Position numbers and translations under genes: made by a program. A DNA stretch of 63,976 bases, the filler included, from an uncultured bacterium (GTDB lineage: Bacteria; CAZDME01; JAYEMH01): the NCBI GenBank assembly GCA_964506785.1. It is 3 parts of 3 records of this genome, joined end to end, with 100 filler letters (N's around TTAATTAATTAA, not from the genome) between each part and the next. Parts side by side here need not be neighbours in the genome. Positions count along the whole stretch, not along the records: positions 26,396 to 51,211 come from CAZDME010000016.1; 2 more parts are not named here. One strand, given 5' to 3'. The notes beneath the pieces are model-generated. The model was given only the letters and a program-made list of their open reading frames with translations, had not been told where the DNA came from and made no database searches. Positions 8,676 to 51,311 of this stretch are shown here, in pieces. How positions within the stretch are numbered: the stretch's first letter is position 1; each line of letters begins with the position of its first letter.

Positions 8676-8702
8676 TTTTCAATTACAGCAATTCCAATTT
8701 AC

Positions 8703-8731
8703 AATTATAGGGTATCCGATATCCTATAATT
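8703..8731. repeat. Intergenic inverted repeat (stem-loop)
   Basis: aattatagggtatccgatatcctataatt is a near-perfect palindrome between the TonB-dependent receptor and the S component. Confidence 0.6.
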
Positions 8732-8752
8732 TCGATAGCCAATAGTTATGAT

Positions 8753-10561: not shown

Positions 10562-10637
10562 GTTACTCTCCTTTCTGTTTCGTTTTTCTTAGGGATACGA
10601 TTCAGACCTGCCTCCCTCCGTAGGCAGAAAATACGGC

Positions 10638-11327: not shown

Positions 11328-11337
11328 TTCCTGTCCC

Positions 11338-12009: not shown

Positions 12010-12052
12010 CGGTTTCTCTTTCTATAAAGAAATCAAAAACCTAAAACAACAG

Positions 12053-26295: not shown

Positions 26296-26395
26296 NNNNN
26301 NNNNNNNNNNNNNNNNNNNNNNNNNNNNNNNNNNNNNNNTTAATTAATTAANNNNNNNNNNNNNNNNNNNNNNNNNNNNNNNNNNNNNNNNNNNN
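26296..26395. other. Artificial contig linker (N44-TTAATTAATTAA-N44)
   Basis: 12-mer with stop codons in all six frames, flanked by 44 N on each side. Confidence 0.98.
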
Positions 26396-36733: not shown

Positions 36734-37300
36734 ATGGATAAAATAAAAACGACTGCCGAAGAACTTCACCAGGGAAAATTGAACCTGAATCCCCAGAAAA
36801 GTGAAAAAGTGCGGCTTTTTATTGACCTTGATATCTGCCACTCTGGTGAGTGTAAGGAGTGTGTTATTAAATGCAGTTATTTCTATCATCCCGATAATAA
36901 CGGTATTTTTTCCGTGGCTGAACTGGCCAGTTTGTTTCTGGTCTGCCGTCGGTGTGAAGAGCCTCATTGTGTCAATGCCTGTCCGGTAGATGCCCTGGAG
37001 CAGCAAAAAGAAAAAGACAACCTTCTCATCCGCCATAATATGCGTTGCATTAGCTGTCGGTCCTGCTCGCACGCCTGTCCTTATGGGACAATCTATCCGG
37101 AAAATGTCCCTTTATTAATTCATAATTGTGATTTTTGTTTTGACCGGAGGAAAAACAAAGATGAGCCTTTATGTATCCAGACCTGTCCTTATCAGGCTTT
37201 AAGTTTAAAAAGAGGGGATATGGAATTAAATGAAAACACCTTTTTAGTCGGAGAGAATCTTATCGTTCATTCCACTCATTGGGATAGAGAAAAGGCATGA
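36734..37300 (+). CDS. Polyferredoxin electron-transfer subunit (HycB/FdhB-like)
   Basis: CRRCEEPHCVNACP, CISCRSCSHACP, CDFC...CIQTCP. Confidence 0.88.
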   Translation: MDKIKTTAEELHQGKLNLNPQKSEKVRLFIDLDICHSGECKECVIKCSYFYHPDNNGIFSVAELASLFLVCRRCEEPHCVNACPVDALEQQKEKDNLLIRHNMRCISCRSCSHACPYGTIYPENVPLLIHNCDFCFDRRKNKDEPLCIQTCPYQALSLKRGDMELNENTFLVGENLIVHSTHWDREKA

Positions 37301-38217
37301 TTTATATATTCTACCTTTTTGTTTATGGTTTTCTGTTAACGGCCGCAATAGGTCTTTTTGCCAGCTGGTTTGACCGCAAGGTAACCGCCCGGGTGCAGTA
37401 CCGCGTCGGCCCGCCTCTCTTCCAGCCTTTATTCGACATCATAAAACTTTTAGGCAAAGAGACACTTGTTCCTTCCGGGTCATCAAAAATAACTTTTCTT
37501 ATCGCTCCGGTTATCGGCCTGGCCAGTTTGATTTTTGTCTCCACCCTTTTATGGCTTAATGCCCTTAACCCGGCCCGGACCTTTTTAGGCGATTTAATTG
37601 TCGTTTTATATTTACTGACTATCCCTTCAATCAGCATTATTATCGGCGGCTTTGCTTCAAAGAATCCTTTAGCCAGCCTCGGCTCATCCCGCGAGATGAA
37701 GCTTATTTTGAGTTACGAACTGCCCTTTGTTTTAGCCTTACTGGTTCCGGTAATAAAGTCTAATTCTATCCGGCTGGGTGAGATTTTAAATTTTCAAGCC
37801 CAAAACGGGGTAGTGGCTGGCAGCTTATCCGGATTCCTGGCTCTGGCGGTGGGTATCATTTGCATGCAGGCAAAGTTAGCCCTGGTGCCTTTTGATATTC
37901 CCGAGGCCGAGACAGAAATTACCAGCGGCCCTTTAATTGAATATTCCGGCAGTGCCCTGGCTTTATACCGGCTGATGAAAAACATGCTTTTATTTACCCT
38001 GCCATTTTTTTTAATTATTATTTTTATGGGCGGGATAAGGTTTGGCGGCATTCATCTTTTATATGCATTCTTAAAATACATCGGATTAGTAGCTTTGGTT
38101 ACCGTCATAAGAAATACCAACCCGCGTCTTAGGATTGACCAGGCGGTCAGATTTTTCTGGGGGCCGATGACTATTATGGCGGCAGTCGCCGTAACCCTGG
38201 CTTTACTGGGTAAATAA
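37297..38217 (+). CDS. Group-4 hydrogenase membrane subunit (NuoH/HycD/MbhM-like)
   Basis: DRKVTARVQYRVGPP, PFDIPEAETE..SGP..EYSG, PRLRIDQ. Confidence 0.93.
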   Translation: MIYIFYLFVYGFLLTAAIGLFASWFDRKVTARVQYRVGPPLFQPLFDIIKLLGKETLVPSGSSKITFLIAPVIGLASLIFVSTLLWLNALNPARTFLGDLIVVLYLLTIPSISIIIGGFASKNPLASLGSSREMKLILSYELPFVLALLVPVIKSNSIRLGEILNFQAQNGVVAGSLSGFLALAVGIICMQAKLALVPFDIPEAETEITSGPLIEYSGSALALYRLMKNMLLFTLPFFLIIIFMGGIRFGGIHLLYAFLKYIGLVALVTVIRNTNPRLRIDQAVRFFWGPMTIMAAVAVTLALLGK

Positions 38218-38651
38218 TGAGTATGAAATTAAAAGCACTTTTAAAATCACCCTGGGTTTTTCATTTATCGACCGGCAGCTGCAATAACTGCGATATAGAG
38301 GTTTTGGATTGTCTTACCCCCAGATTCGATATTGAAAGGTTCGGTATGCTTCTTGCCGGGAGCATAAAACATGCCGATGTGCTTTTGATTACCGGCTCCT
38401 GTAACCGCCAGTCGGTAATACGACTGAAAAGATTATATGAACAGATTCCCAGGCCCTGTTTAGTAGTGGCCATTGGTGAATGTTCTTTATCAAGAGGGAT
38501 GTTTATTCATAGCTACAATTGCCCCCAGCCTTTAGATAAGATTATTCCGGTAGATGTTTACATTCCCGGTTGTCCGCCCAAGCCGGAGGCGATTATTGCC
38601 GGGGTAGTAAAGCTTATTGAAAAAGTAAAGAGAGATAAGGGAAAAAAATGA
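38217..38651 (+). CDS. [NiFe]-hydrogenase group-4 small subunit (NuoB/HycG/MbhJ-like)
   Basis: GSCNNCDIE, AIGEC, IPGCPP. Confidence 0.93.
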   Translation: MSMKLKALLKSPWVFHLSTGSCNNCDIEVLDCLTPRFDIERFGMLLAGSIKHADVLLITGSCNRQSVIRLKRLYEQIPRPCLVVAIGECSLSRGMFIHSYNCPQPLDKIIPVDVYIPGCPPKPEAIIAGVVKLIEKVKRDKGKK

Positions 38652-39121
38652 CCGGAGAAGAGATTTTAAAGGACATAAAAGAAAGATTCAAGGATTATAT
38701 AATTGATTTTTTTGATAAAACCCCCAGGAGGGTTTATATAGAGATTAAGCCGGAATCGATTGTCAAGGTAGCCGGCTACATCTTTAAGAAGCTCGGTGCC
38801 AGATTTAATATTACCACCGGACTGGATACCAGGCACCACATGGAATTATTGTATCACTTTACTTTTGAAGATATAAATTTAATCATTTCTCTTCGGGTGA
38901 AATTAAAGAAAGACAAACTGGAGATTAATTCTCTTACCTCACTTTTTGCCGGTGCCAACTGGATAGAGAGGGAGATTTACGAGATGTTAGGCATAAATTT
39001 TAAAGGACACCCCGATTTAAGGAGGCTTCTTTTATCGGATGACTGGCCGGAAGGTGTTTATCCTTTAAGATGCGATTATAAAGAGTGGGATAAGAAGGCT
39101 ATCAGAGATAGAGGCGTTTAA
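38648..39121 (+). CDS. NuoC/MbhK-like subunit
   Basis: ANWIEREIYEMLGINFKGHPDLRRLLL..WP..YPLR. Confidence 0.93.
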   Translation: MTGEEILKDIKERFKDYIIDFFDKTPRRVYIEIKPESIVKVAGYIFKKLGARFNITTGLDTRHHMELLYHFTFEDINLIISLRVKLKKDKLEINSLTSLFAGANWIEREIYEMLGINFKGHPDLRRLLLSDDWPEGVYPLRCDYKEWDKKAIRDRGV

Positions 39122-40305
39122 TGGCACGAACCATTGTTCCCATAGGTCCGTATCATCCCCTGCAGGAAGAGCCGGAATTCTTCAGTCTGACGGTTGAAGG
39201 GGAAAAGGTAGTCGATATCGATGTCCGGGTGGGTTACAATCACCGGGGGATAGAGAAGCTTTCAGAGAGAAAGACTTTTGACCAATCCACCTTTGTTATC
39301 GAAAGGATTTGCGGGATTTGTTCCACCAGCCATCCCTTTGCTTATACCCGGGCGGTCGAGGATATTATTCCTTTAGAGGTTCCGGAAAGGGCTAAGTATA
39401 TAAGGACGATAATTGCCGAAGGTGAGCGGATACACTCCCATCTTTTGTGGGCCGGATTAGCCGGTCATTTTCTGGGATATAACACCGTCTATATGTGGGT
39501 TTGGAAACTAAGGGAAGAGATTCTGGATGTCATGGAGATTTTATCCGGCAACCGGAATAACTACGCCATGTTTAAGCCCGGAGGGGTTCGCAGAGACATA
39601 AAAAAGGAAGATATTCCCCCGGTAATGAAGAAGCTCGATTCGATTATTCCGAACCTGGAGATGTTAAAGAAGGCCATTCGTGATGACCCGGTTCTTCATG
39701 CCCGGACTAAAGGAATAGGCATTCTTACCAAAGAAGATGCTATAAACTACTGCGCTCTGGGTCCGACCTCCCGGGCATCCGGTGTTGCCAGAGACGTGAG
39801 GAAAGATGCCCCTTATGGCGCCTACGATAAAGTGGACTGGCAAATGATTGTTTCCCGTAACGGCGATGTTTTCGACAAACTGATGGTCAGGATTAATGAA
39901 GTCTTGGAATCGATAAAGATAATGAAGCAGTGCCTGCTGAATCTGCCCAAGGGTGAAATAGATGCCAATATCAAAAATATTCCGCCCGGTGAAGGTATTG
40001 GCTGTGCCGAGGCTCCCCGGGGCGAGGTTTTTCATTATGTCAGAAGCGACGGAACCAACCGGCCGGTCCGCCATAAGGTCAGGGCCCCGACTTTTATGAA
40101 TCTGCCTACTTTCAAGGCAACGGTTATTGGCGAGACCATTTCTGATGCCACCATTATTTTAGCTTCTATTGATCCCTGTTATTGCTGCACGGAAAGAATG
40201 GCCGTGCGCAATGTAAAGGGAAAAAAGCTTTATAACGGAGAAGAGCTGATTGAACTTTCAAAGGCAAAAACCCAAAAAATAAAAGATAGAATGGGGATTA
40301 AATGA
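39121..40305 (+). CDS. [NiFe]-hydrogenase group-4 large (catalytic) subunit
   Basis: L1 ERICGICSTSH, EAPRGE, KVRAPT, L2 DPCYCCTER followed by a cleavable C-terminal tail. Confidence 0.93.
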   Translation: MARTIVPIGPYHPLQEEPEFFSLTVEGEKVVDIDVRVGYNHRGIEKLSERKTFDQSTFVIERICGICSTSHPFAYTRAVEDIIPLEVPERAKYIRTIIAEGERIHSHLLWAGLAGHFLGYNTVYMWVWKLREEILDVMEILSGNRNNYAMFKPGGVRRDIKKEDIPPVMKKLDSIIPNLEMLKKAIRDDPVLHARTKGIGILTKEDAINYCALGPTSRASGVARDVRKDAPYGAYDKVDWQMIVSRNGDVFDKLMVRINEVLESIKIMKQCLLNLPKGEIDANIKNIPPGEGIGCAEAPRGEVFHYVRSDGTNRPVRHKVRAPTFMNLPTFKATVIGETISDATIILASIDPCYCCTERMAVRNVKGKKLYNGEELIELSKAKTQKIKDRMGIK

Positions 40306-41981
40306 ATCTCATCCCGGAGTTTTTTAGATTTGACAGCCTTTCTATTTTTGTCGGGATATTCATTGCCTTTTTCACGGTATTAATTATCTTTTATTCTATT
40401 GGTTTCAGCCCTCTTCGGAAATCAGGAAATGGCCGCTCAGGGAAAAGGCTTTTCAGGTATTATTGCTATATCGTTTTGACTTTTTTGGTTTCACTCGGGG
40501 CTGTTTTTTCTAATGACCTTCTTTTATTTATCGTTTTTTGGGGATTCTTAGGCTTTCTTCTATATCTTTTAATCGGTTTTGGAGAAAAAGAAAACACCCC
40601 GGCGACGGCCAAAAAAGCCTTTATCATTATTGGCGGCACCGACGCCCTGATGCTTTTAGGTTTAGCTTTAATCTGGCGTCTTACCGGTTCGTTTCAAATG
40701 GATAAGATAGATATTGCCCTTAATAGCCGGGCGGCTGTTTGGGCTTATCTCTGTCTGGCCGCCGGAGCTTTTGCCAAAGCCGGGGCAATACCTTTTCACA
40801 CCTGGGTTCCGGATACAGCCGAAGATGCCCCGGCGCCGGTAGCCGCTTTTTTACCGGCCTCTTTAGATAAACTTCTGGGCATATATTTTCTTTTCCGGAT
40901 TTCTATCGATATATTTCAGCTGGATACGGCTATGAACACCTTTCTTATGATGATCGGCAGCTTTACTATTATTGCCGCGGTAATGATGGCTCTTATCCAG
41001 CATGATTTTAAAAGACTATTGGGCTATCATGCCGTCAGTCAAGTAGGGTATATGGTTTTAGGTATCGGGACGGGAAATCCTCTCGGTATTGCCGGGGGGT
41101 TATTTCACATGCTTAACCACGCAATTTATAAATCCTGCCTTTTTCTTGGCAGCGGCGCCGTTGAAAAGGATGCCGGGACGACCGATTTAGATAAACTGGG
41201 GGGTCTCGCCAAAATTATGCCCCTTACTTTTATTACCTTTATTATCGCTTCTTTAGCCATATCCGGTGTTCCGCCTTTGAATGGTTTTGCCTCGAAGTGG
41301 ATGGTTTATCAAGGAATAATCGAAACGGCCAAAAATGGAGGGTATCTATGGATAATCTGGCTGGCGGCGGCCATGTTTGGCAGCGCTTTGACCTTAGCCA
41401 GTTTTATGAAACTGATTCATTCCGTATTTCTCGGTCAGCCTTCTAACCAACCGCCAGCCGCTAGTTACCAGCGGCGAGGGACCAGTTTAGCCATCTTATT
41501 TCCCATGCTTATTCTCTCTGCCCTCTGCCTCATATTCGGTATTTTTCCCTACCGGATACCCCTTAAAATGTTTATCTTTCCTAGCCTGGGAGAAAAAGTT
41601 GCCTTTAGCGGTATATGGCCGGCCAGCCTGGCGACGATTCTCTTGATTTTAGGAATTGCCATTGGTCTCATAATCTATCTCCTTGGCAGCCTCAGCAAGA
41701 TGAGGGAAACCAAGCCTTTTCTGGGCGGGGAAGTTTTGGAAGAGCATCCGGATATGAGGGTTTCCGGAACAGAATTTTATAATACCATAAAGGATTTAGG
41801 TTTTTTAAGAACGATTTATAGGCTCGCCGAAATAAAGTTTTTTGACCTTTATGATTTAGGCAGTAAATTCACTTTTGGTTTTAACCGGCTTTTACGTTAT
41901 TTTCATAACGGGATTCTTTCCACCTATTTATCCTGGTGTCTTTTGGGCACGCTCATTCTTTTTTACGTCTTTTTGAGGTAG
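40302..41981 (+). CDS. MrpA/NuoL-like antiporter subunit (N-terminal portion)
   Basis: PFHTWVPD, KRLLGYHAVSQVGY, HMLNHAIYKSCLF, GVPPLNGF. Confidence 0.9.
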   Translation: MNLIPEFFRFDSLSIFVGIFIAFFTVLIIFYSIGFSPLRKSGNGRSGKRLFRYYCYIVLTFLVSLGAVFSNDLLLFIVFWGFLGFLLYLLIGFGEKENTPATAKKAFIIIGGTDALMLLGLALIWRLTGSFQMDKIDIALNSRAAVWAYLCLAAGAFAKAGAIPFHTWVPDTAEDAPAPVAAFLPASLDKLLGIYFLFRISIDIFQLDTAMNTFLMMIGSFTIIAAVMMALIQHDFKRLLGYHAVSQVGYMVLGIGTGNPLGIAGGLFHMLNHAIYKSCLFLGSGAVEKDAGTTDLDKLGGLAKIMPLTFITFIIASLAISGVPPLNGFASKWMVYQGIIETAKNGGYLWIIWLAAAMFGSALTLASFMKLIHSVFLGQPSNQPPAASYQRRGTSLAILFPMLILSALCLIFGIFPYRIPLKMFIFPSLGEKVAFSGIWPASLATILLILGIAIGLIIYLLGSLSKMRETKPFLGGEVLEEHPDMRVSGTEFYNTIKDLGFLRTIYRLAEIKFFDLYDLGSKFTFGFNRLLRYFHNGILSTYLSWCLLGTLILFYVFLR

Positions 41982-41983
41982 CT

Positions 41984-42532
41984 ATGATTGAACTTTATAT
42001 TTTGTTAATCTTTATGATTATCGGGGCCATCGTTGCTATTGAATTGAAAGACCTGCTTTCTTCGGTAATTGCCGTCGGTGCCGTTGGTTTAGGTCTTTCC
42101 ATAGTTTTTTTAATTCTTAAGGCCCCTGATGTTGCCATTACCCAGTTAGTGGTTGAAATATTATGTTTGATTATTTTAATCAGGGCAACTTTAAAGAGGG
42201 ATTTGCCCTTTTCAACCACGGGCCGCTGGTTTTTAAACACGGCGATTACCATCGCTTTTATTTCTGCTTTCTTATGGATGGCGGTTCAAGCCTTGAAGGA
42301 TTTGCCGGAGTTCGGTTATCCGATAATGAAGGTGGCCGGCACCTATTTAAAAAAAGGATTAGCTGAAACCGGGGCCGCCAATTTGGTATCCGCGGTGATA
42401 CTTGATTTCAGGGCCTATGATACCCTGGGTGAGGCGACGGTATTATTTACCGCCGTAATCGGCGTTCTCACTGTTGTCCGGCGGGTAGGCAGAAAAAAGC
42501 CGGATGGAATTATTGAGGAGAATAATGAGTAA
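41984..42532 (+). CDS. MrpA C-terminal/MbhD-E-like subunit (DUF4040)
   Basis: Start MIELY at 41984; APDVAITQ, N.V..VILDFRAYDTLGE. Confidence 0.88.
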   Translation: MIELYILLIFMIIGAIVAIELKDLLSSVIAVGAVGLGLSIVFLILKAPDVAITQLVVEILCLIILIRATLKRDLPFSTTGRWFLNTAITIAFISAFLWMAVQALKDLPEFGYPIMKVAGTYLKKGLAETGAANLVSAVILDFRAYDTLGEATVLFTAVIGVLTVVRRVGRKKPDGIIEENNE

Positions 42533-42977
42533 AGAAGGCGAAAAGGGAATGTCTCTCATTGTCAAAACAATCACCCGCCTGACCGTGGGCTTGATACTTC
42601 TTTATGGAATTTATCTGGTTTTGCACGGCCATGTATCACCGGGGGGCGGTTTTGCCGGCGGGGTTATTATTGCTCTTTCCTTTATCCATCTGATGCTTGC
42701 TTATGGCAAAGAAGCCGCTTTTAAGAAACTCTCGCAATCCGCCGCCTCGTTTTTCGAAAGTTTTGGGGCGATATTATTTCTAACTATTGCCCTTTTGGGG
42801 CTTATCGCCGGGTATTTCTTTTCGAACTTCCTGCCTAAAGGCGAGCCTTTTAGATTATTCAGCGCCGGTATTATTCCGCTTTGCAATATTGCCGTAAGTT
42901 TTAAAGTTGGTGCCGGGCTATTTGCCATATTTGTCGCTCTGGTCTTATTGAAATTGGATTCGGAGAAAAAGAAATGA
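42525..42977 (+). CDS. MrpB/MnhB subunit
   Basis: HGHVSPGGGFAGG; start MSKEG at 42525. Confidence 0.9.
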   Translation: MSKEGEKGMSLIVKTITRLTVGLILLYGIYLVLHGHVSPGGGFAGGVIIALSFIHLMLAYGKEAAFKKLSQSAASFFESFGAILFLTIALLGLIAGYFFSNFLPKGEPFRLFSAGIIPLCNIAVSFKVGAGLFAIFVALVLLKLDSEKKK

Positions 42978-43312
42978 TGGTATATCTGCTTTGTCTGGTG
43001 CTTTTTTGCTGCGGTCTTTACTGTATCTTAAGAAAGCGCAATATCATTAAAATTATTGTCGGGGTGATTATTTCCGAATATGCCGTTAACCTTTTTTTTA
43101 TTTTAACCGCTTACCGGATTAAAGGCCGCTCGCCGATATTTTCAACCGGAGGGGATATTTGCAACATGGTTGACCCCTTGCCGCAGGCTTTAGTCCTGAC
43201 GGCCATTGTCATTGGTCTGGCCACCACTGCCTTACTGGTTGCCCTGGCCATGAGAATATATGAGAAATACGGCACCTTTGATATTACCAAAATCAGGGAA
43301 TTGAGAGGATAG
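42974..43312 (+). CDS. MrpC/MnhC subunit
   Basis: DPLPQALVLTAIVIG. Confidence 0.93.
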   Translation: MMVYLLCLVLFCCGLYCILRKRNIIKIIVGVIISEYAVNLFFILTAYRIKGRSPIFSTGGDICNMVDPLPQALVLTAIVIGLATTALLVALAMRIYEKYGTFDITKIRELRG

Positions 43313-43316
43313 GATT

Positions 43317-44810
43317 ATTAGTATAATTCCGTTTTTCATTATTATACCGCTGGCTGGAGCCTTCCTGGTTTCAATCATCGGTAGGAAGATAAAATGGTTT
43401 CCGGATGCCTTGGGAAATTTCACTACCCTGGCCTTATTTTGTTTTTCTATGCTGGCCGTTCGGGCAGTCAATAGCCAGGGAACTTTGGTTTATAGCCTGG
43501 GGGGCTGGAGGCCGCCGGCAGGGATTGCCATGGTTCTGGATGGTTTAACTGCCTTTATGCTGGCAACCGTAAATTTAGTTGCCTTTCTTATTGCTGTCTA
43601 TGCCGTTGATTATATGGAGAAGTTTACCTCAAAATGGAAATTTTACAGCCTGTATCTTTTGATGCTCGCCGGAATGAACGGAGTGTTGATAAGCGGCGAT
43701 ATCTTTAATCTTTTTGTCTTTTTAGAGATTGCCTCAGTAGCCAGCTATGCCTTAGTTGCCTTTGGCACCGAACGGCACGAGCTTGAAGCCGCTTTTAAAT
43801 ATGCGGTTATGGGCACCGTCGGTTCGCTTTTTATCCTTATTGGGATTGTATTTTTGTACAGTTTTTCTTCAACCTTGAATATGGCCGATATGGCTAATTT
43901 TTTTGGAGAGAAGGGTCCGGGAAACGTTACTATTATGGTCAGCGTTTTATTTATTATGGGTTTTGGCCTTAAGGCCGCCCTTGTTCCTTTCCATGCCTGG
44001 CTGCCTGATGCTCATCCCTCGGCACCGGCTCCGATTTCTGCCATACTTTCCGGGATATTAATAAAATCCCTTGGTGTTTATACCTTAGTGCGGATATTTT
44101 ATAATGTCATCGGCGTAACTCCAAAGCTATCATCGGTATTGATGTTTTTAGGGGCTCTTTCCATGGTTATCGGGGTATTTCTGGCTATCGGCCAATGGGA
44201 TTTCAAAAGGCTTCTGGCATATCACTCAATCAGCCAGATTGGTTATGTGGTTTTAGGTATTGGTTTGGGCACACCACTAGGTATTCTCGGGGGGCTCTTT
44301 CATCTTTTTAACCATTCCGTATTTAAATCGCTTCTATTTTTGAATTCCGGGGCGGTAGAATATGCCACCGGCACCCGTGATTTACGAAAGACGGGCGGCT
44401 TATTTCAGAAGATGCCCTTAACCGGCAGCGCCAATCTCATTGCTTCTATGTCTATTGCCGGTATTCCTCCTTTTAATGGTTTCTGGAGCAAGTTGATTAT
44501 TATAATCGCTGCCGTCCAGGCTGGCCGTTATGGATACGCCGGCTGGGCGGTTTTAGCCAGTATATTGACTCTGGCTTCGTTTACCAAGGTAATGAAGTAT
44601 GTATATTACGGTAAATTGGAAGAGAAATGGAATAAGGTAAAGGAAGTACCGTTTTTTATGAAGCTGGCCATGGCCGCTTTAGCCATTATCTGTTTATTCG
44701 GCGGAGCTTTACTTATTGGGCAAATAAACAGAGCTTTTCTTCAGCCGGCCGTGGAGGTGATTTTAAATGGCCGTAACTATGGTGCCATGCTTTTTAAAAG
44801 GATACTTTAG
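43317..44810 (+). CDS. MrpD/MnhD antiporter subunit
   Basis: DIFNLFVFLEI, KAALVPFHAWLPDAH, KRLLAYHSISQ. The frame extends to ATT at 43317 with a canonical first helix (IIPFFIIIPLAGAF). Confidence 0.9.
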   Translation: MSIIPFFIIIPLAGAFLVSIIGRKIKWFPDALGNFTTLALFCFSMLAVRAVNSQGTLVYSLGGWRPPAGIAMVLDGLTAFMLATVNLVAFLIAVYAVDYMEKFTSKWKFYSLYLLMLAGMNGVLISGDIFNLFVFLEIASVASYALVAFGTERHELEAAFKYAVMGTVGSLFILIGIVFLYSFSSTLNMADMANFFGEKGPGNVTIMVSVLFIMGFGLKAALVPFHAWLPDAHPSAPAPISAILSGILIKSLGVYTLVRIFYNVIGVTPKLSSVLMFLGALSMVIGVFLAIGQWDFKRLLAYHSISQIGYVVLGIGLGTPLGILGGLFHLFNHSVFKSLLFLNSGAVEYATGTRDLRKTGGLFQKMPLTGSANLIASMSIAGIPPFNGFWSKLIIIIAAVQAGRYGYAGWAVLASILTLASFTKVMKYVYYGKLEEKWNKVKEVPFFMKLAMAALAIICLFGGALLIGQINRAFLQPAVEVILNGRNYGAMLFKRIL

Positions 44811-45308
44811 ATGAAAAGTAGAGCCGTTTTATTTCTTGTTTCTTTTCTGGTTTGGTCACTCTTGAACTGGATGCCGGATTGGCAGCATCTTCTCGTCGGC
44901 TTTTTTATCGCTCTTTTTATTGCTTTTATGACCGGGGATTTATTTATCAGGAGGCCTCATGTTTTAAAACATCCCTGGCGTTACTGGTATTTCTTTGCGG
45001 AGTATCTGCCGGTATTTCTCTGGGAATGTTTAAAGGCTAATATTGACGTTGCCTATCGGGTATTGCATCCGCGCCTGCCGATAAATCCGGGCATTGTTAA
45101 AGTGAAGACACGCCTCAAGTCGGATACGGCCTTAACATTTTTGGCCAATTCCATCACCTTGACTCCCGGGACGATGAGCGTTGATATCGACCGGGAAAAT
45201 AATATTTTGTATGTTCACTGGATTAATGTCCGTAGTACCGACGTTGAAGGGGCAACCAGGATGATTGTTGGCCGTTTTGAAGGCATATTGGAAAAGATTT
45301 TCGATTAG
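44811..45308 (+). CDS. MrpE/MnhE subunit
   Basis: ANIDVAY..LHP..INPGIV, LANSITLTPGT, LYVHW. Confidence 0.93.
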   Translation: MKSRAVLFLVSFLVWSLLNWMPDWQHLLVGFFIALFIAFMTGDLFIRRPHVLKHPWRYWYFFAEYLPVFLWECLKANIDVAYRVLHPRLPINPGIVKVKTRLKSDTALTFLANSITLTPGTMSVDIDRENNILYVHWINVRSTDVEGATRMIVGRFEGILEKIFD

Positions 45309-45317
45309 GGTAAAAAG

Positions 45318-45686
45318 ATGAAAACCATTCGCTGGTTTATTGGCGCCGTTATTTTATCAGGGCTGGTTGCTTTGATTATTCTCCGGCCGCTTCCGTTTCT
45401 TTTTTATCCGGATCTTCCGTACCTCAATTTTTTGGGCCGGGCCCTTTACATAATTATTCTTGCTTGTATCTTAGCCCTTTTTAGGATATGGAAGGGGCCA
45501 ACCGGCGCTGACCGTATTGTTGCCATAGATATTCTTGGTATTATGATTGTCGGTCTCTGTGCTGTTTTGACCATTTCCACCGGCCGCTCCTGGTATATCG
45601 ATATTGGCATTGCCTGGGCCCTGCAAAGTTTTATCAGCACCCTGGCCCTTTCCAAATATTTAGAGGGAAAAGGGTTTGAAGAGTAA
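45318..45686 (+). CDS. MrpF/MnhF subunit with extra N-terminal TM
   Basis: RIWKGPTGADRIVAID. Confidence 0.88.
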   Translation: MKTIRWFIGAVILSGLVALIILRPLPFLFYPDLPYLNFLGRALYIIILACILALFRIWKGPTGADRIVAIDILGIMIVGLCAVLTISTGRSWYIDIGIAWALQSFISTLALSKYLEGKGFEE

Positions 45687-45713
45687 AAATACGGATTTAC
45701 AGAGAAAAGGATA

Positions 45714-46049
45714 ATGAATATTCCGATAGGTTTAGTATTTATCAGTTTGGGTTTAGCCTTTGATTTTTTTGGTTGTCTGGGGCTGGTTCGTCTTCCGGAT
45801 ATATACAATCGTTTGCAGGCGGCGACAAAATGCGTCACTCTGGGTACCTGCAGTATTCTTTTTGGCACTTTTCTGATTGTTGGGTTTTGCGCCGCCGGGA
45901 TGAAAGCCCTTTTATGCATAATCTTTCTTCTTTTGACTGCGCCGGTATCCGCCCATGCCTTAGCCAGGGGCGCCCACCGCTCGGGGGTGAAACTTTGCCA
46001 GGGTAGCCTCGTTGATAAATACAGGGAAGATAAAGAAGGTGAAGTTTAA
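45714..46049 (+). CDS. MrpG/MnhG subunit
   Basis: GLVRLPDIYNRLQAATK..TLG, TAPVSAH. Confidence 0.93.
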   Translation: MNIPIGLVFISLGLAFDFFGCLGLVRLPDIYNRLQAATKCVTLGTCSILFGTFLIVGFCAAGMKALLCIIFLLLTAPVSAHALARGAHRSGVKLCQGSLVDKYREDKEGEV

Positions 46050-46051
46050 AA

Positions 46052-46663
46052 ATGAAACTTCCAAAAATAAGAGAATTAATTGAGGCCATAAAGGCGTTAA
46101 TAAAAGGGCCTTACACCACAAAATTTCCAAAAGGTTCGTACCGGCCCCACCCAAATTTCCGGGGACAGCCCAAGTTTGACCGGGAGAAATGTGTAGGGTG
46201 TCTCGCCTGCGAAGAAATTTGTCCGGTAGAGGCCATTGCCCATAAAGATATTATTGATGGGGGTGGAAAGGCCAGGCGGGTTATGATTCATTATACCGAT
46301 ACCTGTATATTCTGCGGCCAGTGTGAAGCCGCTTGTATCGCTGAACACCAGGGAATTAAACTCTCCAATGACTGGGAGCTTTCTTTTTTTGACAGAAAAA
46401 ACGAATCATCTGAAACCATTGAGAAAGAACTTCAGCTTTGCGAGATGTGCGGAACGCCCATTGCCTGTAAAGACCATCTTAACTGGATTGCCGAGAAACT
46501 AGGCGAGCTTACTTATTCCAGCCCCACATTATATTTATCCCGCCTTAAAAGTTTGGGGATAATCGATGAAAATATTATATCTTCTTTAAAAGATGAGGGG
46601 CGTTCCGACCGGGTAAAAATTCTTTGCGCCCGCTGCCGCAGAAAGACTACCCAAACGACCTGA
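46052..46663 (+). CDS. NuoI/HycF/MbhN-like 2x[4Fe-4S] subunit
   Basis: FRGQP, CVGCLACEEICP, CIFCGQCEAAC, extra CEMC/CARC. Confidence 0.92.
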   Translation: MKLPKIRELIEAIKALIKGPYTTKFPKGSYRPHPNFRGQPKFDREKCVGCLACEEICPVEAIAHKDIIDGGGKARRVMIHYTDTCIFCGQCEAACIAEHQGIKLSNDWELSFFDRKNESSETIEKELQLCEMCGTPIACKDHLNWIAEKLGELTYSSPTLYLSRLKSLGIIDENIISSLKDEGRSDRVKILCARCRRKTTQTT

Positions 46664-46668
46664 TAGCC

Positions 46669-47151
46669 ATGCGCTCCACTTTTAAAAAGATACTTAAAGG
46701 GAAAGTTATTGTTCTGGGTGTGGGCAATATTATGCGTGGGGATGATGGCTTCGGCCCGGCTCTTATTGAAAACTTGAGCCGGCCCTCCGGCCGGGCTGAA
46801 TCAACGAGAAAATTTATTTTTATTGACGCCGGCAGCGCCCCGGAGAATTATCTGGGTAAGATTATAAAAGAAAAGCCCGATACTGTTTTAATCGTTGATG
46901 CTGTTCACCTCAACTTATCGCCGGGTAAATACGAACTTTTAAAAAAGGCGGAAATAGCCAACTGCGGTTTAACCACGCATGACATCTCACCCGGTTTATT
47001 TATCGATTTTTTAGAGAAAGAGACGGATGCCGACATTTATTTTTTGGGACTTCAGCCTAAGAATATTACCTTGGGAGATGATATGTCAGTTGAGGTTAAA
47101 AAATCCGTTATTGAACTATCCGGATTGATTAAGGGGGTGACAAATGCATGA
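46669..47151 (+). CDS. hycI: Hydrogenase maturation endopeptidase (HycI-like)
   Basis: LGVGNIMRGDDGFG, GSAPEN, IVDA, TTH, GLQP; ATG at 46669. Confidence 0.92.
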   Translation: MRSTFKKILKGKVIVLGVGNIMRGDDGFGPALIENLSRPSGRAESTRKFIFIDAGSAPENYLGKIIKEKPDTVLIVDAVHLNLSPGKYELLKKAEIANCGLTTHDISPGLFIDFLEKETDADIYFLGLQPKNITLGDDMSVEVKKSVIELSGLIKGVTNA

Positions 47152-47386
47152 ATCACATCTGATTGAGCCGGTAATCAAAGGTGTATCCGAACATGCCCGA
47201 AAAGAGGGGGCAAAGGCGGTATCTAAATTAAGGCTGAAAATCGGCCTTCTTACCGGTGTGAAAGAAGAATCGTTTAAAGAGACATTTTACCTTCTTGCCA
47301 AAGGAACTGTTTTGGAGAAGGCTGAGCTTGAATTGACCTTTTCCCCGGATTCAAAAATAGAAGTTGTTTCTTTTGATGTAGAATAA
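47144..47386 (+). CDS. hypA: Minimal HypA nickel metallochaperone lacking the zinc-finger domain
   Basis: MHE Ni motif, V..LRLKIG.LTGV..ESF..F....GT..E.AEL; 80 aa with no Cys. Confidence 0.85.
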   Translation: MHESHLIEPVIKGVSEHARKEGAKAVSKLRLKIGLLTGVKEESFKETFYLLAKGTVLEKAELELTFSPDSKIEVVSFDVE

Positions 47387-47419
47387 CTCTTGTTATGCTG
47401 GTTAAGAAAATCTTTAAGA

Positions 47420-47494
47420 ATTTAAAATTTAAAATATACAATTTCCAAATTACAAATAGAATATTTGTAATTTGTTAGTTGTACTTTGTAATTC
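47420..47494. repeat. AT-rich heptameric/palindromic repeat (same family as 4516-4595)
   Basis: Perfect 13-bp stem caaattacaaata-gaa-tatttgtaatttg (47446-47474). Confidence 0.7.
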
Positions 47495-47509
47495 TGGATA
47501 TAATGAAAT

Positions 47510-48814
47510 ATGTGTTATGCCATTCCTGGAAAGGTAAAGGAAATAAGCGGGAGGACTGTTCTGGTCGATTATTTTGGCCAGACCAAAAAGGCGATTAACG
47601 AATTCTATGATATCCGTCCCGGGGATTATATTTCTGCTCAAGGAGGTTATGTAATAAAAAAGGTGCCGCCTGAGGAGGCGGAAGATATCCTTTCTGCCTG
47701 GGGGGAACTTTTCTTTGAACTTCAGGAAGTTGACCTGCGTCTTTCCAGCCTGGATTTTGAAAAAAAGGATATTGATAAAAAACTAAGCCTTATTTTGGAT
47801 AGGGCCTTAGAAGGCCTTCCTTTAAGGCGTGAGGACTTGTCCTATTTAATCAGTCTTGATAATCCAAAGGCTCTGGATTTTTTATTCAAGACAGCCAATT
47901 TCCTCCGTCAGAAATTTCACCAGAATTCCTGCTGTGTCCACGGCATAATCGAAATTTCGAATTATTGCCGGAGGGCCTGTCTTTATTGCGGTATATCAAC
48001 CCACAATAAAAATATTGTCCGCTACCGGATGAAGGCTGATGAGATTGTTGCTGCGGCTAAAGAAGCCGTCGAAAAATACGGCTTCCAGGCTTTGGTTTTA
48101 CAAAGCGGCGAAGACCCTCTTTATAGCCTTGATGAGCTTGCCGCTATCATCGAGAGGATCAAAAAAGAAGCGGCTGTGTTGATTTGCATAAGTTTTGGGG
48201 AAATCGGCCTAGCCGGTTTGGAAAGACTTTATCGAGCCGGTGCCCGGGGAATTCTTATGCGTTTTGAAACCTCCAATCGGGAAATCTTTAAGCGGCTTCA
48301 TCCCGGCCAGGAGTTAGCCGCCAGATTGGCCCATTTAAAAAAAGCGGCCGAGTTGGGTTACTTAATTATGACCGGGGGGCTTATCGGCCTGCCCGGACAA
48401 ACCAGTGAAGATATTATAAATGACCTTTATCTGGCCAAAGAACTTGGGGCGGAGATGTATTCTTTTGGTCCTTTTCTGCCGCATCCGGAAACACCTTTAT
48501 CTGAAAGCCCTCCTCCTTCAGAAGAGAGGGTTTTAAAAACCCTGGCCTTAGCCAGGCTTATTGACCCGGAAAACGCTAAAATCTTGGTTACCACTGCTTT
48601 TGAAACCTTAAGTGCGGCGGCGCGGAGGAAAGGACTTGTTTCCGGGGCCAGCTCGGTCATGCTTAATGTCACTCCTCTTAAATACCGCCGGCATTATTCG
48701 ATTTATCCGGATAAAGCCTATAGTACCGAGGCGGTAAATGTTCAGATTGAAGAAACCGTTTCTTTGCTTAAGTCTCTGGGGCGGGCGCCTACGGATTTAG
48801 GCACAGATAAATAA
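47510..48814 (+). CDS. HypC/HupF-domain + HydE-like radical SAM fusion protein
   Basis: N-term MCYAIPGKV...VDYFG...PGDY...EEAE (HypC). C-term HGIIEISNYCRRACLYCG, RYRM, VLQSGED, ET, GLPGQT, GPFLPHPETPL, TTA, YSIYPDK (HydE/PylB-type). Confidence 0.9.
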   Translation: MCYAIPGKVKEISGRTVLVDYFGQTKKAINEFYDIRPGDYISAQGGYVIKKVPPEEAEDILSAWGELFFELQEVDLRLSSLDFEKKDIDKKLSLILDRALEGLPLRREDLSYLISLDNPKALDFLFKTANFLRQKFHQNSCCVHGIIEISNYCRRACLYCGISTHNKNIVRYRMKADEIVAAAKEAVEKYGFQALVLQSGEDPLYSLDELAAIIERIKKEAAVLICISFGEIGLAGLERLYRAGARGILMRFETSNREIFKRLHPGQELAARLAHLKKAAELGYLIMTGGLIGLPGQTSEDIINDLYLAKELGAEMYSFGPFLPHPETPLSESPPPSEERVLKTLALARLIDPENAKILVTTAFETLSAAARRKGLVSGASSVMLNVTPLKYRRHYSIYPDKAYSTEAVNVQIEETVSLLKSLGRAPTDLGTDK

Positions 48815-48840
48815 AAATTTTTGAACATTAGTTTCCAATT

Positions 48841-49491
48841 ATGAAAAACCGGAAAGCAATAAATAAAAACGTTTTTTCCCTGGGTACCATTAAACGTCTT
48901 AGTTTATATCTACGAAATTTAAAGATTCTGAGAGAACGCCGCATCGAAATTATTTCCTCCGATAAAATAACCCGTTTTCTCAATGTTACCCCGGTTCAGT
49001 TTAGAAAAGACCTTTCTTTTTTTGGCGGCTTTGGAAAAAGAGGGGTTGGCTACCGGGTGGAAAAGTTAATCCAGGAGATTGAAAATATATTAGGGGTAAA
49101 TAAAGAGTGGCATATTGTCCTGGTTGGAGCCGGAAAATTAGGCAGCGCTCTTTTAGGCTTTGACGGCTTTTCGAAATTCAATATTAAAATAATCTATGCC
49201 TTTGATATCGATAAGGATAAGATAGGCAAGACAAGGAAAGGGGTAAAAATAGAGGATTTAGAAAAAATGAAAGATATCGTTAAACAAAATAACATTAAGC
49301 TGGCGATAATTTCTACCCCGCCGGAAGTAGCCCAGGGTATAATAAATGATTTGGTGAAATCGGGAGTAAGGGGTTTTTTGAATTTTGCCCCGGTCGCCCT
49401 TAAGGTTCCTGATGATATTTCCGTTTCAAATGTTGATATGGCCTGTGAGCTGGAAAGTTTAATATTCTTTGCCAAGAAAAGGCATATTTAA
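48841..49491 (+). CDS. rex: Redox-sensing (NADH/NAD+) repressor Rex
   Basis: TIKRLSLY, QFRKDLSFFG.FGKRGVGY, VGAGKLGSAL, LNFAP. Confidence 0.96.
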   Translation: MKNRKAINKNVFSLGTIKRLSLYLRNLKILRERRIEIISSDKITRFLNVTPVQFRKDLSFFGGFGKRGVGYRVEKLIQEIENILGVNKEWHIVLVGAGKLGSALLGFDGFSKFNIKIIYAFDIDKDKIGKTRKGVKIEDLEKMKDIVKQNNIKLAIISTPPEVAQGIINDLVKSGVRGFLNFAPVALKVPDDISVSNVDMACELESLIFFAKKRHI

Positions 49492-49514
49492 ATCCATAAC
49501 TTAAGGATTACAAG

Positions 49515-51011
49515 ATGTTGGCCGATACCGTAAAGCTCAATTCCTGGATAGATAATCGGATAAAAAAAGAACAAATTACAAAATACCTGAATGGAGAGAG
49601 AGATTTTATCGATCAGGATAAAATCCGCCGCCTTTTAATTTCCTCAGAAAGGCCGGGTACCCAGATGGTCAGGGATATCCTTAAGAAATCAGAATCTATT
49701 CAAACTTTGACCCTTGAAGAAACCGCCGCGCTTTTGAATGTTACCGATAGAGATTTATGGGAAGAAATGAAAGAAAAAGCCGGCCAGATCAAGCAAAAGG
49801 TTTATGATAACCGCATTGTCACCTTTGCCCCGCTGTATATGAGCAACCTCTGTGTCAATAATTGCCTTTATTGCGGTTTTCGCAAAGACAATTGGCAGAC
49901 CAAAAGGCAGATGCTCACTTTAGATGAGGTGAGAAAAGAGACAGAGGTTTTAGCCGGAGAAATTGGCCATAAGCGCCTGATAGTTGTTTATGGGGAGCAT
50001 CCGGAAAGTGATATCGATTATATGGCTTCCACCATAAAGGCCATCTATCAGGTTAAGACAAAAACAAAAAGAGCCTTTGGCCAAATCCGCCGGGTAAATG
50101 TTAATGCCGCGCCCTTATCCATCGAAAATCTCAAGATTCTTCATCAGGTAGGTATCGGCACTTATCAGGTATTTCAAGAGACCTATCACCGGCCTACTTA
50201 CCGGGCAGTTCATCCTCAGGGAACTCTCAAATCCGATTATCAATGGCGCCTTTATTGTATGCACCGGGCATTCGAGGCCGGGGTAGATGATGTCGGTATT
50301 GGTGTTCTTTTTGGCTTGTATGACTGGCGGTTTGAAGTTTTAGGCCTTCTTTCTCATGCCCGTGAGCTGGAGGAAAAATTTGGCATTGGCCCTCACACTA
50401 TTTCCTTTCCCCGTCTGGAGGAAGCGGCCAATAGTCCTTTTACCCGGCATCCGGCTTACAAGGTTAGTGATGAAGATTTTGAGAAGCTAATTGTAATTAT
50501 CAGGCTATCCGTTCCTTATACCGGAATGATTCTCACTGCCCGGGAGACCCCGGCAATAAGAAGAAAGGTTATTTCTTTGGGCTGTACCCAGACTGATGCC
50601 TCAACCCGTATCGGCATCGGCGCTTATAGCGACCGCTATACTGAACAGGAAGGAAAGCGCCAGCAATTTTTCTTAGGTGATACCAGAAGCCTGGATGAGG
50701 TAATAAGGGATTTAGCCGAGATGGGCTACATTACTTCCTTTTGTACCGCCGGGTATCGCTGCGGGCGCACCGGTAAATGCATTATGGATTTATTAAGAAA
50801 GGGCGAAGAGAGATGGTTCTGTAAATTGAATGCCGTTTTAACCTTTGAAGAATATCTTCAGGATTTTGCCGATGAAGAAACCCGGCTTGTTGGGAAAAAA
50901 CTGGTTGAAAAAGAAGCGAAAGAGATTGAGGAGAAAATCCCCAAGCTAAAATCCAGATTCAGGGAATACTTGACACGCATTGGAAATGGAGAACGAGACC
51001 TCTATTTTTGA
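49515..51011 (+). CDS. hydG: [FeFe]-hydrogenase maturase HydG (tyrosine lyase, CO/CN- synthon producer)
   Basis: FAPLYMSNLCVNNCLYCGF, YGEHP, RRVNVN, FQETYH, GPHTISFPR (dangler His), C-terminal CTAGYRC-X19-C auxiliary cluster motif, GERDLYF. Confidence 0.95.
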   Translation: MLADTVKLNSWIDNRIKKEQITKYLNGERDFIDQDKIRRLLISSERPGTQMVRDILKKSESIQTLTLEETAALLNVTDRDLWEEMKEKAGQIKQKVYDNRIVTFAPLYMSNLCVNNCLYCGFRKDNWQTKRQMLTLDEVRKETEVLAGEIGHKRLIVVYGEHPESDIDYMASTIKAIYQVKTKTKRAFGQIRRVNVNAAPLSIENLKILHQVGIGTYQVFQETYHRPTYRAVHPQGTLKSDYQWRLYCMHRAFEAGVDDVGIGVLFGLYDWRFEVLGLLSHARELEEKFGIGPHTISFPRLEEAANSPFTRHPAYKVSDEDFEKLIVIIRLSVPYTGMILTARETPAIRRKVISLGCTQTDASTRIGIGAYSDRYTEQEGKRQQFFLGDTRSLDEVIRDLAEMGYITSFCTAGYRCGRTGKCIMDLLRKGEERWFCKLNAVLTFEEYLQDFADEETRLVGKKLVEKEAKEIEEKIPKLKSRFREYLTRIGNGERDLYF

Positions 51012-51211: not shown

Positions 51212-51311
51212 NNNNNNNNNNNNNNNNNNNNNNNNNNNNNNNNNNNNNNNNNNNNTTAATTAATTAANNNNNNNNNNNNNNNNNNNNNNNNNNNNNNNNN
51301 NNNNNNNNNNN
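51212..51311. other. Artificial contig linker (N44-TTAATTAATTAA-N44)
   Basis: Identical to the linker at 26296-26395. Confidence 0.98.

Follow-up and report, generated by a model that had tools for sequence, protein, structure and literature searches.

How the iron centre of a [NiFe] hydrogenase may be assembled when its operon carries radical S-adenosylmethionine (SAM) enzymes of [FeFe] hydrogenase maturation instead of HypD, HypE, and HypF is the question raised by a stretch of DNA of 63,976 nucleotides (nt), hereafter the window, from an uncultured bacterium (GTDB lineage Bacteria; CAZDME01; JAYEMH01; assembly GCA_964506785.1). To our knowledge, HypC, HypD, HypE, and also HypF have been regarded as the universal Fe(CN)2CO machinery for all [NiFe] hydrogenases, carbamoyl phosphate being the source of the cyanide. 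In the window, the operon of a group 4 [NiFe] hydrogenase ends with a cassette at 46624–51011 in the order hycI, short hypA, hypC::hydE fusion, rex, and hydG, all on the + strand, as seen from the open reading frame (ORF) listing and family scans:

46624–47151, + strand: hycI, endopeptidase for the large-subunit tail (PF01750, 47.5 bits; TIGR00142, 114.5 bits, cut-off 119.1; superfamily TIGR00072, 102.5 bits, above cut-off)
47144–47386, + strand: hypA, short, 80 amino acids (aa) (PF01155, profile positions 1–66 of 112)
47387–47509, no strand: AT-rich spacer before the fusion gene (sequence inspection)
47510–48814, + strand: hypC::hydE fusion, 434 aa (HupF_HypC at residues 1–64, Radical_SAM at 147–304, BATS at 323–424)
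47510–47749, + strand: HypC domain of the fusion, residues 1–80 (PF01455, 47.7 bits, cut-off 28.5)
47750–48814, + strand: linker helices and HydE-type radical SAM barrel of the fusion, residues 81–434 (TIGR03956, 242.8 bits; structure model; column comparison)
48841–49491, + strand: rex, NADH/NAD+-sensing repressor (NF003995, 246.9 bits)
49515–51011, + strand: hydG, radical SAM tyrosine lyase (TIGR03955, 461.4 bits, cut-off 312.15)

Comparison with related genomes suggests that hypC::hydE and hydG are, probably, a self-sufficient replacement for HypC, HypD, HypE, and HypF in [NiFe] maturation. Six observations support this: the fusion and HypD exclude each other, HydG is kept where HydA is missing, the two systems change places at one operon position, the large-subunit tree shows repeated switches between them, triple fusions exist, and both the HydE exit and the HypC domain are remodelled; for the detailed mechanism set out below our confidence is lower.

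The co-directional order hycI-hypA-[hypC::hydE]-rex-hydG had been read from the DNA in an earlier note, and both the order and the gene identities were confirmed by the ORF listing and by Pfam and NCBIfam scans; the intergenic gaps are −8, 123, 26, and 23 nt. The note's observation that the window has no hypB, hypD, hypE, hypF, hydA, or hydF also stands: none of these was found in Pfam scans of the 57 window ORFs, and in a tblastn search of the window with ORFs of at least 70 aa from two hypC/D/E/F loci of the same phylum only HypC was matched, at the N-terminus of the fusion. The window consists of three contigs joined by N44-TTAATTAATTAA-N44 linkers at 26296–26395 and 51212–51311, and the operon contig (26396–51211, CAZDME010000016.1) stops approximately 200 nt past hydG; hence, the absence of a gene from the window says little alone, and the maturase question was answered in related genomes. 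As the junctions are artificial, neighbourhoods across the linkers, e.g., that of hydG and fur/feoAB, are not real; fur/feoAB, which lie beyond a linker and have no counterpart in related loci, were ruled out as part of the cassette.

A species-level scan (one genome per prokaryote species) yielded 13 genomes with the full-length fusion and two with an ordinary HydE. HypD is over the cut-off in none of these 13 fusion genomes, HydG is over the cut-off in all 13, and HydA and HydF are found in the same two. Neither HypE nor HypF passes its cut-off in these genomes or in five further fusion genomes (0/18 in total); HydF is not found in the further five and is thus absent from 16 of the 18, and the only HypC domain in each of the five is that of the fusion itself. 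In the positive control, formed by five HypD genomes, HypE is over the cut-off in all five, and all have HypF matches with E ≤ 1e-57.

To address the same question across the phylum, a single sample of 401 of its genomes was searched, and the results were combined by set arithmetic. The [NiFe] large subunit was defined here by a best PF00374 match with E ≤ 1e-10, which gave 197 genomes; 206 were over the family cut-off, and the weaker matches were set aside as probable NuoD. The full-length fusion is present in 49 of the 401 genomes, a shorter-linker form in 12, HypD in 133, and HydA in 155. All 61 fusions checked, including the 12 with a shorter linker, begin with MC(Y)xIPG. The latter 12, first taken as 'class 2' HydE-like matches (query residues about 124–432), were considered as a family lacking HypC, and this was ruled out: all of them begin with a HypC domain, the linker being approximately 40 residues shorter.

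The 197 [NiFe] genomes fall into 129 with HypD only, 61 with the fusion only, seven with neither, and none with both (Fisher p = 1.8e-43, uncorrected for shared ancestry); one or the other is thus present in 190 of the 197. The large subunit is present in 61/61 fusion genomes, and the fusion in 0/204 genomes without a large subunit. As HypD is found in 129 of the 136 [NiFe] genomes without the fusion, its absence from all 61 is not explained by the incompleteness of metagenome-assembled genomes (MAGs). Co-occurrence of hypDEF with hydA and hydF in related genomes, named in the earlier note as the pattern that would speak against its proposal, was looked for, with HypD in 0/13 and 0/61 genomes, and HydA and HydF together in only 2/13; the proposal withstood this check in related genomes. 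Judged by genomics, the cassette and HypCDEF exclude one another, can take each other's place, and are both linked to [NiFe] large subunits.

HydG follows the fusion in a similar way. It is over the cut-off in 59 of the 61 fusion genomes, both misses being HydA-positive; 32 of the 61 have no HydA, and HydG is kept in every one of these. Among the 109 HypD-positive, HydA-negative genomes, 80 were tested, and HydG was found in one (G163), the remaining matches being of ThiH length and below the cut-off. The 29 HydA-positive fusion genomes have one HydG in 25 cases, two in two, and none in two. HydG adjoins a separate canonical HydE in G066, G101, G201, G269, and G397, and all 14 fusion genomes with a second, canonical HydE-like match are HydA-positive. 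On the simplest reading, one HydG appears to feed two branches in such genomes, one through canonical HydE and HydF to HydA, and the other through HypC-HydE to the [NiFe] large subunit.

Exchange of the two systems at a single operon position is seen in genome G156, whose large subunit is 83.5% identical to that of the window. The operon continues with the same hycI and an 81-aa hypA, and then with hypF(short)-hypC-hypD-hypE, which occupy the position of fusion-rex-hydG in the window. As an aside, a short HypF (355–408 aa) stands beside hypCDE in three of five HypD-type genomes, the other two having full-length HypF; it covers only profile positions about 385–739 and is without the acylphosphatase, Zn-finger, and YrdC parts:

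G156, contig C1, 774115–775158: short HypF
G347, contig C26, 984536–985606: short HypF
G162, contig C1, 1649737–1650807: short HypF

The order hycI-hypA-fusion-rex-hydG is found behind the same group 4 operon in seven loci and fusion-hydG-rex in one; the fusion stands behind other [NiFe] large subunits in two loci, and fusion-hydG alone in two. In L068–L075, soluble group 3-like hydrogenases adjoin the fusion. Five genomes have no orthologue of the window large subunit at the fusion locus, and all five have a [NiFe] large subunit. In a collection of 5.8 billion proteins, 118 of the best 120 matches to the fusion (61–100% identity) carry both PF01455 and PF04055; automatic names given to its relatives are 'HypC chaperone', 'radical SAM protein', 'HydE', and 'biotin synthase'. 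Overall, the cassette is conserved at 39–100% identity across bacteria and archaea. The archaeal cases are the fusion-hydG pairs of L010 and L011, in 0.8-Mb genomes labelled DPANN; in L010 (contig JBMFNT010000004.1) the pair is flanked by genes for proteasome alpha, SBDS, and the Rrp4/41/42 exosome. Both genomes have a [NiFe] large subunit of approximately 440 aa on another contig, and no HypD, HypE, HypF, HydA, or HydF was found in them.

The three domains are also found in one protein. In G168, on a 1.26-Mb contig, a 915-aa ORF directly after hycI and an 80-aa hypA consists of HypC (residues 1–76), HydE (95–406, 304.5 bits), and HydG (444–913, 515.5 bits). At least 15 clusters of 805–946 aa combine HypC with radical SAM domains at 39–75% identity to the window protein; all four long-fusion clusters tested are over the cut-off for both HydE and HydG, and five triple fusions pass HydE TIGR03956 with 304–362 bits. 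That just these three domains have been joined independently, in divergent proteins, strongly indicates one shared pathway. Among the HypC-HydE-HydG proteins, P0129 and P0133 come from MAGs labelled Nitrospirae by NCBI and are named simply 'HydG'; the cassette thus reaches beyond Omnitrophota, and automatic names hide it.

The sequence of the fusion combines conservation with replacement at specific positions. Its HypC domain begins with MCYAIPGKV and scores 38.1 bits with the stricter TIGR00074, below the cut-off of 48. Cys2 of HypC is an essential iron ligand, and it is invariant in 43/43 fusions. Gln44, also invariant in 43/43, stands at the position of the conserved His in the HypC motif (V/I)H(V/T/A)GF (His51 in E. 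coli); this His is kept in HypC of T. kodakarensis (2z1c), by alignment, and in the two free-standing HypC proteins compared, which come from Omnitrophota genomes of the HypD type.

The best NCBIfam family of the fusion is HydE (TIGR03956), its 242.8 bits lying just below the cut-off of 254.6, and the match to HmdB (TIGR03957, 79.7 bits) is far below the cut-off. The SAM-cluster cysteines are C153, C157, and C160 (CX3CX2C). The AlphaFold2 model (predicted local distance difference test 93.0, predicted template modelling score 0.92) has as its best Foldseek match TmHydE 3cix, with a template modelling (TM) score of 0.94 and a root-mean-square deviation of 1.7 Å over 344 columns. We compared residues between 32 fusions and 11 canonical HydE from the same set of loci, in window numbering. 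The SAM cysteines are kept in both; M316 is present in 30/32 fusions, M384 in 32/32, and both in 11/11 canonical HydE. By our own alignment mapping, we take these to be M224 and M291 of TmHydE. In canonical HydE, column 144 holds Arg, column 226 Thr, and column 247 Arg (11/11), whereas the fusions have C141, C142, H144, and R246 in 32/32, a variable column 226, and Gly, Ala, or Ser at 247; GRAPTD is a fusion-specific C-terminal motif. Columns 144, 226, and 247 presumably correspond to R54, T134, and R155 of the S3 site of TmHydE.

The Cys-x-His signature tracks the HypC domain: C-x-H is present in 15/15 long fusions that bear HypC, and x-L-R is kept in 6/6 HydE-HydG fusions without it. Among the fusion-specific residues, only Cys142-x-His144 persists in the divergent triple fusions. 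The fused HydE domains lie on one side of a branch separating them from canonical HydE, with a value of 100 in the Shimodaira–Hasegawa-like approximate likelihood ratio test, which fits one origin followed by spread. In the HydE literature, the product is described as leaving through the S3 site on its way to HydF, and M224 and M291 as steering the iron species to that site. By this comparison, the fusion retains the chemical half of HydE (the SAM cluster, the pocket, and the guide methionines), and its putative hand-over site is rebuilt as a thiolate/imidazole one.

These features are consistent with the following sequence of steps. HydG would cleave tyrosine and assemble, at its dangler iron, an Fe-carbonyl-cyanide unit, with Fe(Cys)(CO)2(CN) and a second cyanide resulting from two turnovers; this is established for HydG generally and is suggested for the window protein by its equivalog-level similarity. 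The HydE-type barrel would then take up the unit and free it from the cysteine chelate by 5'-deoxyadenosyl radical chemistry, as the conserved SAM cluster, pocket residues, and both guide methionines suggest. Instead of leaving through the Arg/Thr/Arg 'S3' exit towards HydF, the iron unit would be caught at the rebuilt exit with its invariant Cys-x-His; given the fusion-specific residues there, one CO could be swapped at this site for the second cyanide of HydG, giving Fe(CN)2(CO). By homology with HypC, the attached domain would receive the unit on Cys2 and insert it into the large-subunit precursor. Finally, short HypA would add nickel and HycI would clip the tail, as in the standard pathway. 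This route, from HydG through the HydE domain and the HypC domain to the large subunit, had been proposed in the earlier note, and it is well supported by genomics (exclusion, HydG retention, and triple fusions). A complex prediction for the large subunit and the HypC domain (residues 1–80), run without controls, gave a median score of 0.25 against a mark of 0.32.

According to a review, HydG forms Fe(Cys)(CO)(CN), followed by Fe(Cys)(CO)2(CN) and another cyanide, so that two tyrosines give 2 CO and 2 CN; Fe(CN)2(CO) would thus be within reach if cyanide displaces one CO. The mismatch between the HydG product described there and Fe(CN)2CO leaves room for a partial replacement, in which HydG and the fusion would provide only CO or Fe-CO, and cyanide or a HypD-type scaffold would come from a protein that escapes the Hyp models. 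HypB (TIGR00073) was not found in any of five fusion genomes searched, so that unrecognisable maturases are plausible; moreover, no source of CO has been established for anaerobic [NiFe] maturation. We nevertheless consider such a division of labour unlikely: HydG makes CO and CN equally, so nothing more is formally needed; HypD, HypE, and HypF are all missing together; the fusion with hydG is the only module conserved across bacteria and archaea, standing alone among exosome and proteasome genes in L010; and the triple fusions unite exactly these three domains, with no fourth.

A second question is whether the enzymes matured by the cassette are themselves unusual. The hydrogenase of the window is an Mbh/Mrp-type group 4 enzyme, preceded by two abutting ORFs on the same strand:

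34811–36665, + strand: Fer4_22 4Fe-4S dicluster protein and FAD/NAD-binding protein with a DHODB-type Fe-S domain, just 5' of the hydrogenase genes (Pfam)
36734–46663, + strand: structural genes of the Mrp-linked group 4 [NiFe] hydrogenase (Pfam), i.e., ferredoxin, NuoH-like, small subunit (38217–38651), NuoC-like, large subunit (39121–40305), two antiporter-like subunits, MbhD/E, MnhB, NuoK-like, MnhE, MrpF, and ferredoxin (46052–46663)

In the large subunit, the two Ni-Fe cysteine motifs read RICGICSTSH and DPCYCCTER, in agreement with the group 4 forms L1 (RxCGxCxxxH) and L5 (DPCxxCxxR); it also has a C-terminal tail of 35 residues, and complex-I-like and Mrp-like partners. By both cysteine motifs and the tail, it is a genuine nickel-iron enzyme whose maturation requires an endopeptidase. 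We also considered whether the operon might conceal a divergent or minimal [FeFe] hydrogenase of the kind seen in hybrid archaeal enzymes (cf. PMC11216029); this was ruled out, every ORF of the operon belonging to a complex-I, Mrp, or ferredoxin family. The two genes at 34811–36665 are likely the NAD(P)H-linked electron module of the operon.

The large-subunit tree has 69 rows (34 fusion genomes, 34 HypD genomes, and one with neither; L107, having no large subunit by the motif filter, was dropped). The fusion/HypD label changes on it at least 11 times, at least five of these changes being forced by well-supported branches, and the large subunit closest to that of the window (86% identity) belongs to a HypD genome. 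Large subunits of at least two clades, very unlike each other, are served by the cassette: group 4 and a 440–470-aa type. In the group 4 set (9 vs. 16 rows; long-branch L009, L065, and L066 omitted), 0/435 alignment columns separate fusion-served from HypD-served large subunits; in the second set (22 vs. 17 rows; L046 and L093 omitted), only 6/490 do, and these are ragged N-terminal columns. With no separating columns, the delivered unit would fit the ordinary pocket.

This bears on the possibility, raised in the earlier note as a way around the ligand stoichiometry, that the route is the same and the product is not, the large subunits carrying Fe(CO)2(CN) or another unusual ligand set. The chemistry would be the simplest, the unit known from the HydG literature being delivered unchanged. 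The column comparison lends no support to such a site: the ligand pocket shows no adaptation, and large subunits served by one system and by the other share up to 86% identity and are interleaved on the tree, so that we regard a non-canonical product as distinctly improbable.

Both Ni-Fe cysteine motifs are kept in 68/68 large subunits examined, which speaks against inactive relics or enzymes matured by the machinery of another organism, with an unrelated or regulatory role of the fusion. Such a situation is conceivable in Omnitrophota, which include very small, possibly host-dependent cells (the genomes considered here are of 0.8–3 Mb); however, hycI and hypA are retained beside the fusion, the cassette is conserved at 39–100% identity across bacteria and archaea, and sharing of protein maturases between cells is not known, which makes this explanation very unlikely. 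Chance joining of HypC and HydE, with hydG and the hydE-like gene maturing an [FeFe] hydrogenase elsewhere and hypDEF lying on unbinned contigs, is hardly credible, for although the window is a MAG of short joined contigs and HydA is present in 29/61 fusion genomes, HydG is kept in all 32 fusion genomes without HydA, HypD is found in none of 61 against 129/136 other [NiFe] genomes, HydA-positive fusion genomes have a separate canonical HydE (14/14), and the fusion never occurs without a [NiFe] large subunit (61/61).

Several points weigh against full replacement of HypCDEF by hypC::hydE and hydG. The case for it is one of comparative genomics throughout. All the genomes are MAGs of unreported completeness, with labels assigned per genome, not per enzyme, the operon contig ends 200 nt after hydG, and the genome-wide searches concern related genomes. 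The exceptions in the census are the seven [NiFe] genomes with neither system, four HypD genomes without a large subunit, the two fusion genomes without HydG, and G163, which is HypD-positive, HydA-negative, and HydG-positive; the case of HypB indicates that fusion genomes can be without recognisable forms of expected maturases. With the HydE domain below its family cut-off and all three S3 residues gone, its chemistry may differ from that of HydE, and the S3 correspondence itself comes from our own mapping. The HydG product has 2 CO:1 CN and the [NiFe] site 1 CO:2 CN, the exchange step between them being a proposal. Canonical HydE yields a dimerising Fe(I) species, and a mononuclear Fe(II) is needed here; capture by protein thiolates could stop the Fe(I) species from dimerising.

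We consider it rather likely that the cassette represents a fully HypCDEF-independent route to the [NiFe] iron centre, the third of its kind, in which CO and CN derived from tyrosine would be supplied by HydG, the HydE barrel would act as a HypD-like scaffold, and the HypC arm would insert the unit; its distribution would reflect a single origin and repeated transfer displacing HypCDEF in Omnitrophota, Nitrospirae-labelled MAGs, a Legionellales symbiont, and DPANN archaea.

Generally, the cassette resembles both known maturation systems and differs from each. With canonical HypC/D/E/F maturation of E. coli and T. kodakarensis it shares the target, a precursor with CxxC motifs and a tail, as well as HypA, HycI, a HypC module with an N-terminal Cys2, and the position in the orthologous operon; unlike it, the cassette has neither the HypD scaffold nor the HypE/HypF route from carbamoyl phosphate to cyanide, its HypC is covalently joined to a radical SAM barrel, and the conserved His is replaced by an invariant Gln. 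With the HydG/HydE/HydF maturation of [FeFe] hydrogenases it shares an equivalog-level HydG, the HydE fold (TM 0.94) with the SAM cluster, the pocket, and equivalents of M224/M291, and apparently one common HydG where both enzyme types occur; in contrast, 32/61 fusion genomes have no HydA and 16/18 tested have no HydF, Cys-x-His stands in place of the Arg/Thr/Arg exit, the fused HydE domains form their own branch, and the presumed recipient is HypC with a [NiFe] large subunit, not HydF with HydA. HmdB, too, is a radical SAM protein of the HydE/BioB type that works outside [FeFe] hydrogenases, in its case for [Fe]-hydrogenase, but it serves the iron–guanylylpyridinol cofactor, has no HypC domain, and is independent of HydG. 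A precedent for more than one source of the diatomic ligands in [NiFe] enzymes is HypX, which makes CO aerobically from formyl-tetrahydrofolate (PMC6802093); it supplements HypCDEF and gives CO only, whereas the cassette appears to replace HypCDEF altogether.

The statement of the earlier note that this route had not been described holds for the pathway and not for the protein. No description of a HydG/HypC-HydE pathway was found in a full-text literature search, most subscription journals being outside it, while one 2026 preprint mentions in passing a HydE-HypC fusion, called unusual there, from the [NiFe] operon of Candidatus Centrionella anaeramoebae (bioRxiv 10.64898/2026.04.11.717937). 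In that preprint, the same two families are fused and accompanied by a maturation protease and HypA; HypB is present, the fusion is listed in the 'full maturation machinery' with no pathway offered, and HydG and HypD do not occur in the text; the identity of this fusion with the family described here is assumed from the description. Group 4g enzymes are reported in Omnitrophota, the word 'maturation' being absent from the text (PMC8542988), and three archaeal genomes are described as having an incomplete HydEFG set (PMC11216029); the cassette may explain archaeal genomes with such an 'incomplete' HydE/HydG set.

If the replacement holds, the assembly of the iron centre would have been solved in nature a second time and by different chemistry, through a two-gene, sometimes one-gene, substitute made of radical SAM maturases of the [FeFe] type; this would also be the first biochemical bridge between [FeFe] and [NiFe] maturation, hitherto regarded as unrelated. 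The source of CO in cassette-matured enzymes could then be traced directly with labelled tyrosine, and the cassette would be a compact option for heterologous production of [NiFe] hydrogenases. For annotation, HydG and HydE would no longer imply an [FeFe] hydrogenase, nor would missing HypDEF imply a dead [NiFe] enzyme.

The remaining observations concern the individual genes of the cassette and their surroundings. The window HydG aligns end to end with TiHydG 4wcx (493.8 bits); CVNNCLYC is its SAM-cluster motif, and the His motif for the dangler iron is GPHT. At the auxiliary cluster (residues about 410–440), the motif is CTAGYRCGRTGKC...C and does not match the canonical CTACYR...C (CX2CX22C): the second Cys is replaced by Gly, and there are extra Cys residues 6 and 12 positions after the first. 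This type of variant is found in 11/43 HydG from related loci (12/44 with the window copy) and in four triple fusions. It was considered as an adaptation to the pathway and ruled out, as 21 of the 31 fusion-bearing loci read have the canonical CTACYR/CAACYR and the variant also occurs at L040, where it adjoins a canonical HydE in a HydA-positive genome; by its distribution, we interpret it as a lineage trait.

The rex gene lies between the fusion and hydG in seven related loci and adjoins them in two more. The spacer before the fusion contains a 30-nt imperfect inverted repeat (47429–47458 / 47462–47491; arms 80% complementary and 3 nt apart), and TTTGTAA/TTACAAA half-sites recur there. The spacer is a candidate operator/promoter region of a fusion-rex-hydG unit, and the repeat at 47429–47491 could be an operator for the Rex protein encoded two genes downstream. 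Promoter and terminator scans gave no more matches here than in shuffled sequence, promoter-like matches being at 47414 and 47435. No RNA run containing 46624–51011 is listed; five DNA runs from four studies contain at least 0.97 of its words, and all are flagged as possible sources.

The short HypA consists of the N-terminal nickel-binding half, beginning with MHE, and is without the Zn-finger half; this form of 80–81 aa is conserved in group 4 operons of both maturation types (e.g., L047, 7158–7400, and L108, 11407–11649). Together with the failure to find HypB in the five fusion genomes searched, it suggests that nickel insertion may also be unusual in fusion genomes. For hycI, the true start may be the ATG at 46669, as the earlier note gave. 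In another locus, L069 (G138, contig C38, 2800–6100), a [NiFe] large subunit runs in frame, right after DPCISCATH, into a 160-residue maturation-endopeptidase-like domain (GLGNSLRRDDGIG...), i.e., the enzyme is fused to the protease expected to clip it.

Elsewhere in the window, on a contig different from that of the hydrogenase, positions 8142–12742 encode an energy-coupling factor substrate component, a TonB-dependent receptor, TonB, an ATP-binding cassette ATPase, and a CbiQ-type permease, which may form a nickel or cobalt uptake system. Finally, a 1453-aa ORF at 21848–26209 on the − strand, most of it outside any assigned family, has a LOG/'lysine decarboxylase'-family domain near its N-terminus and Peptidase_M23 near residue 1050.

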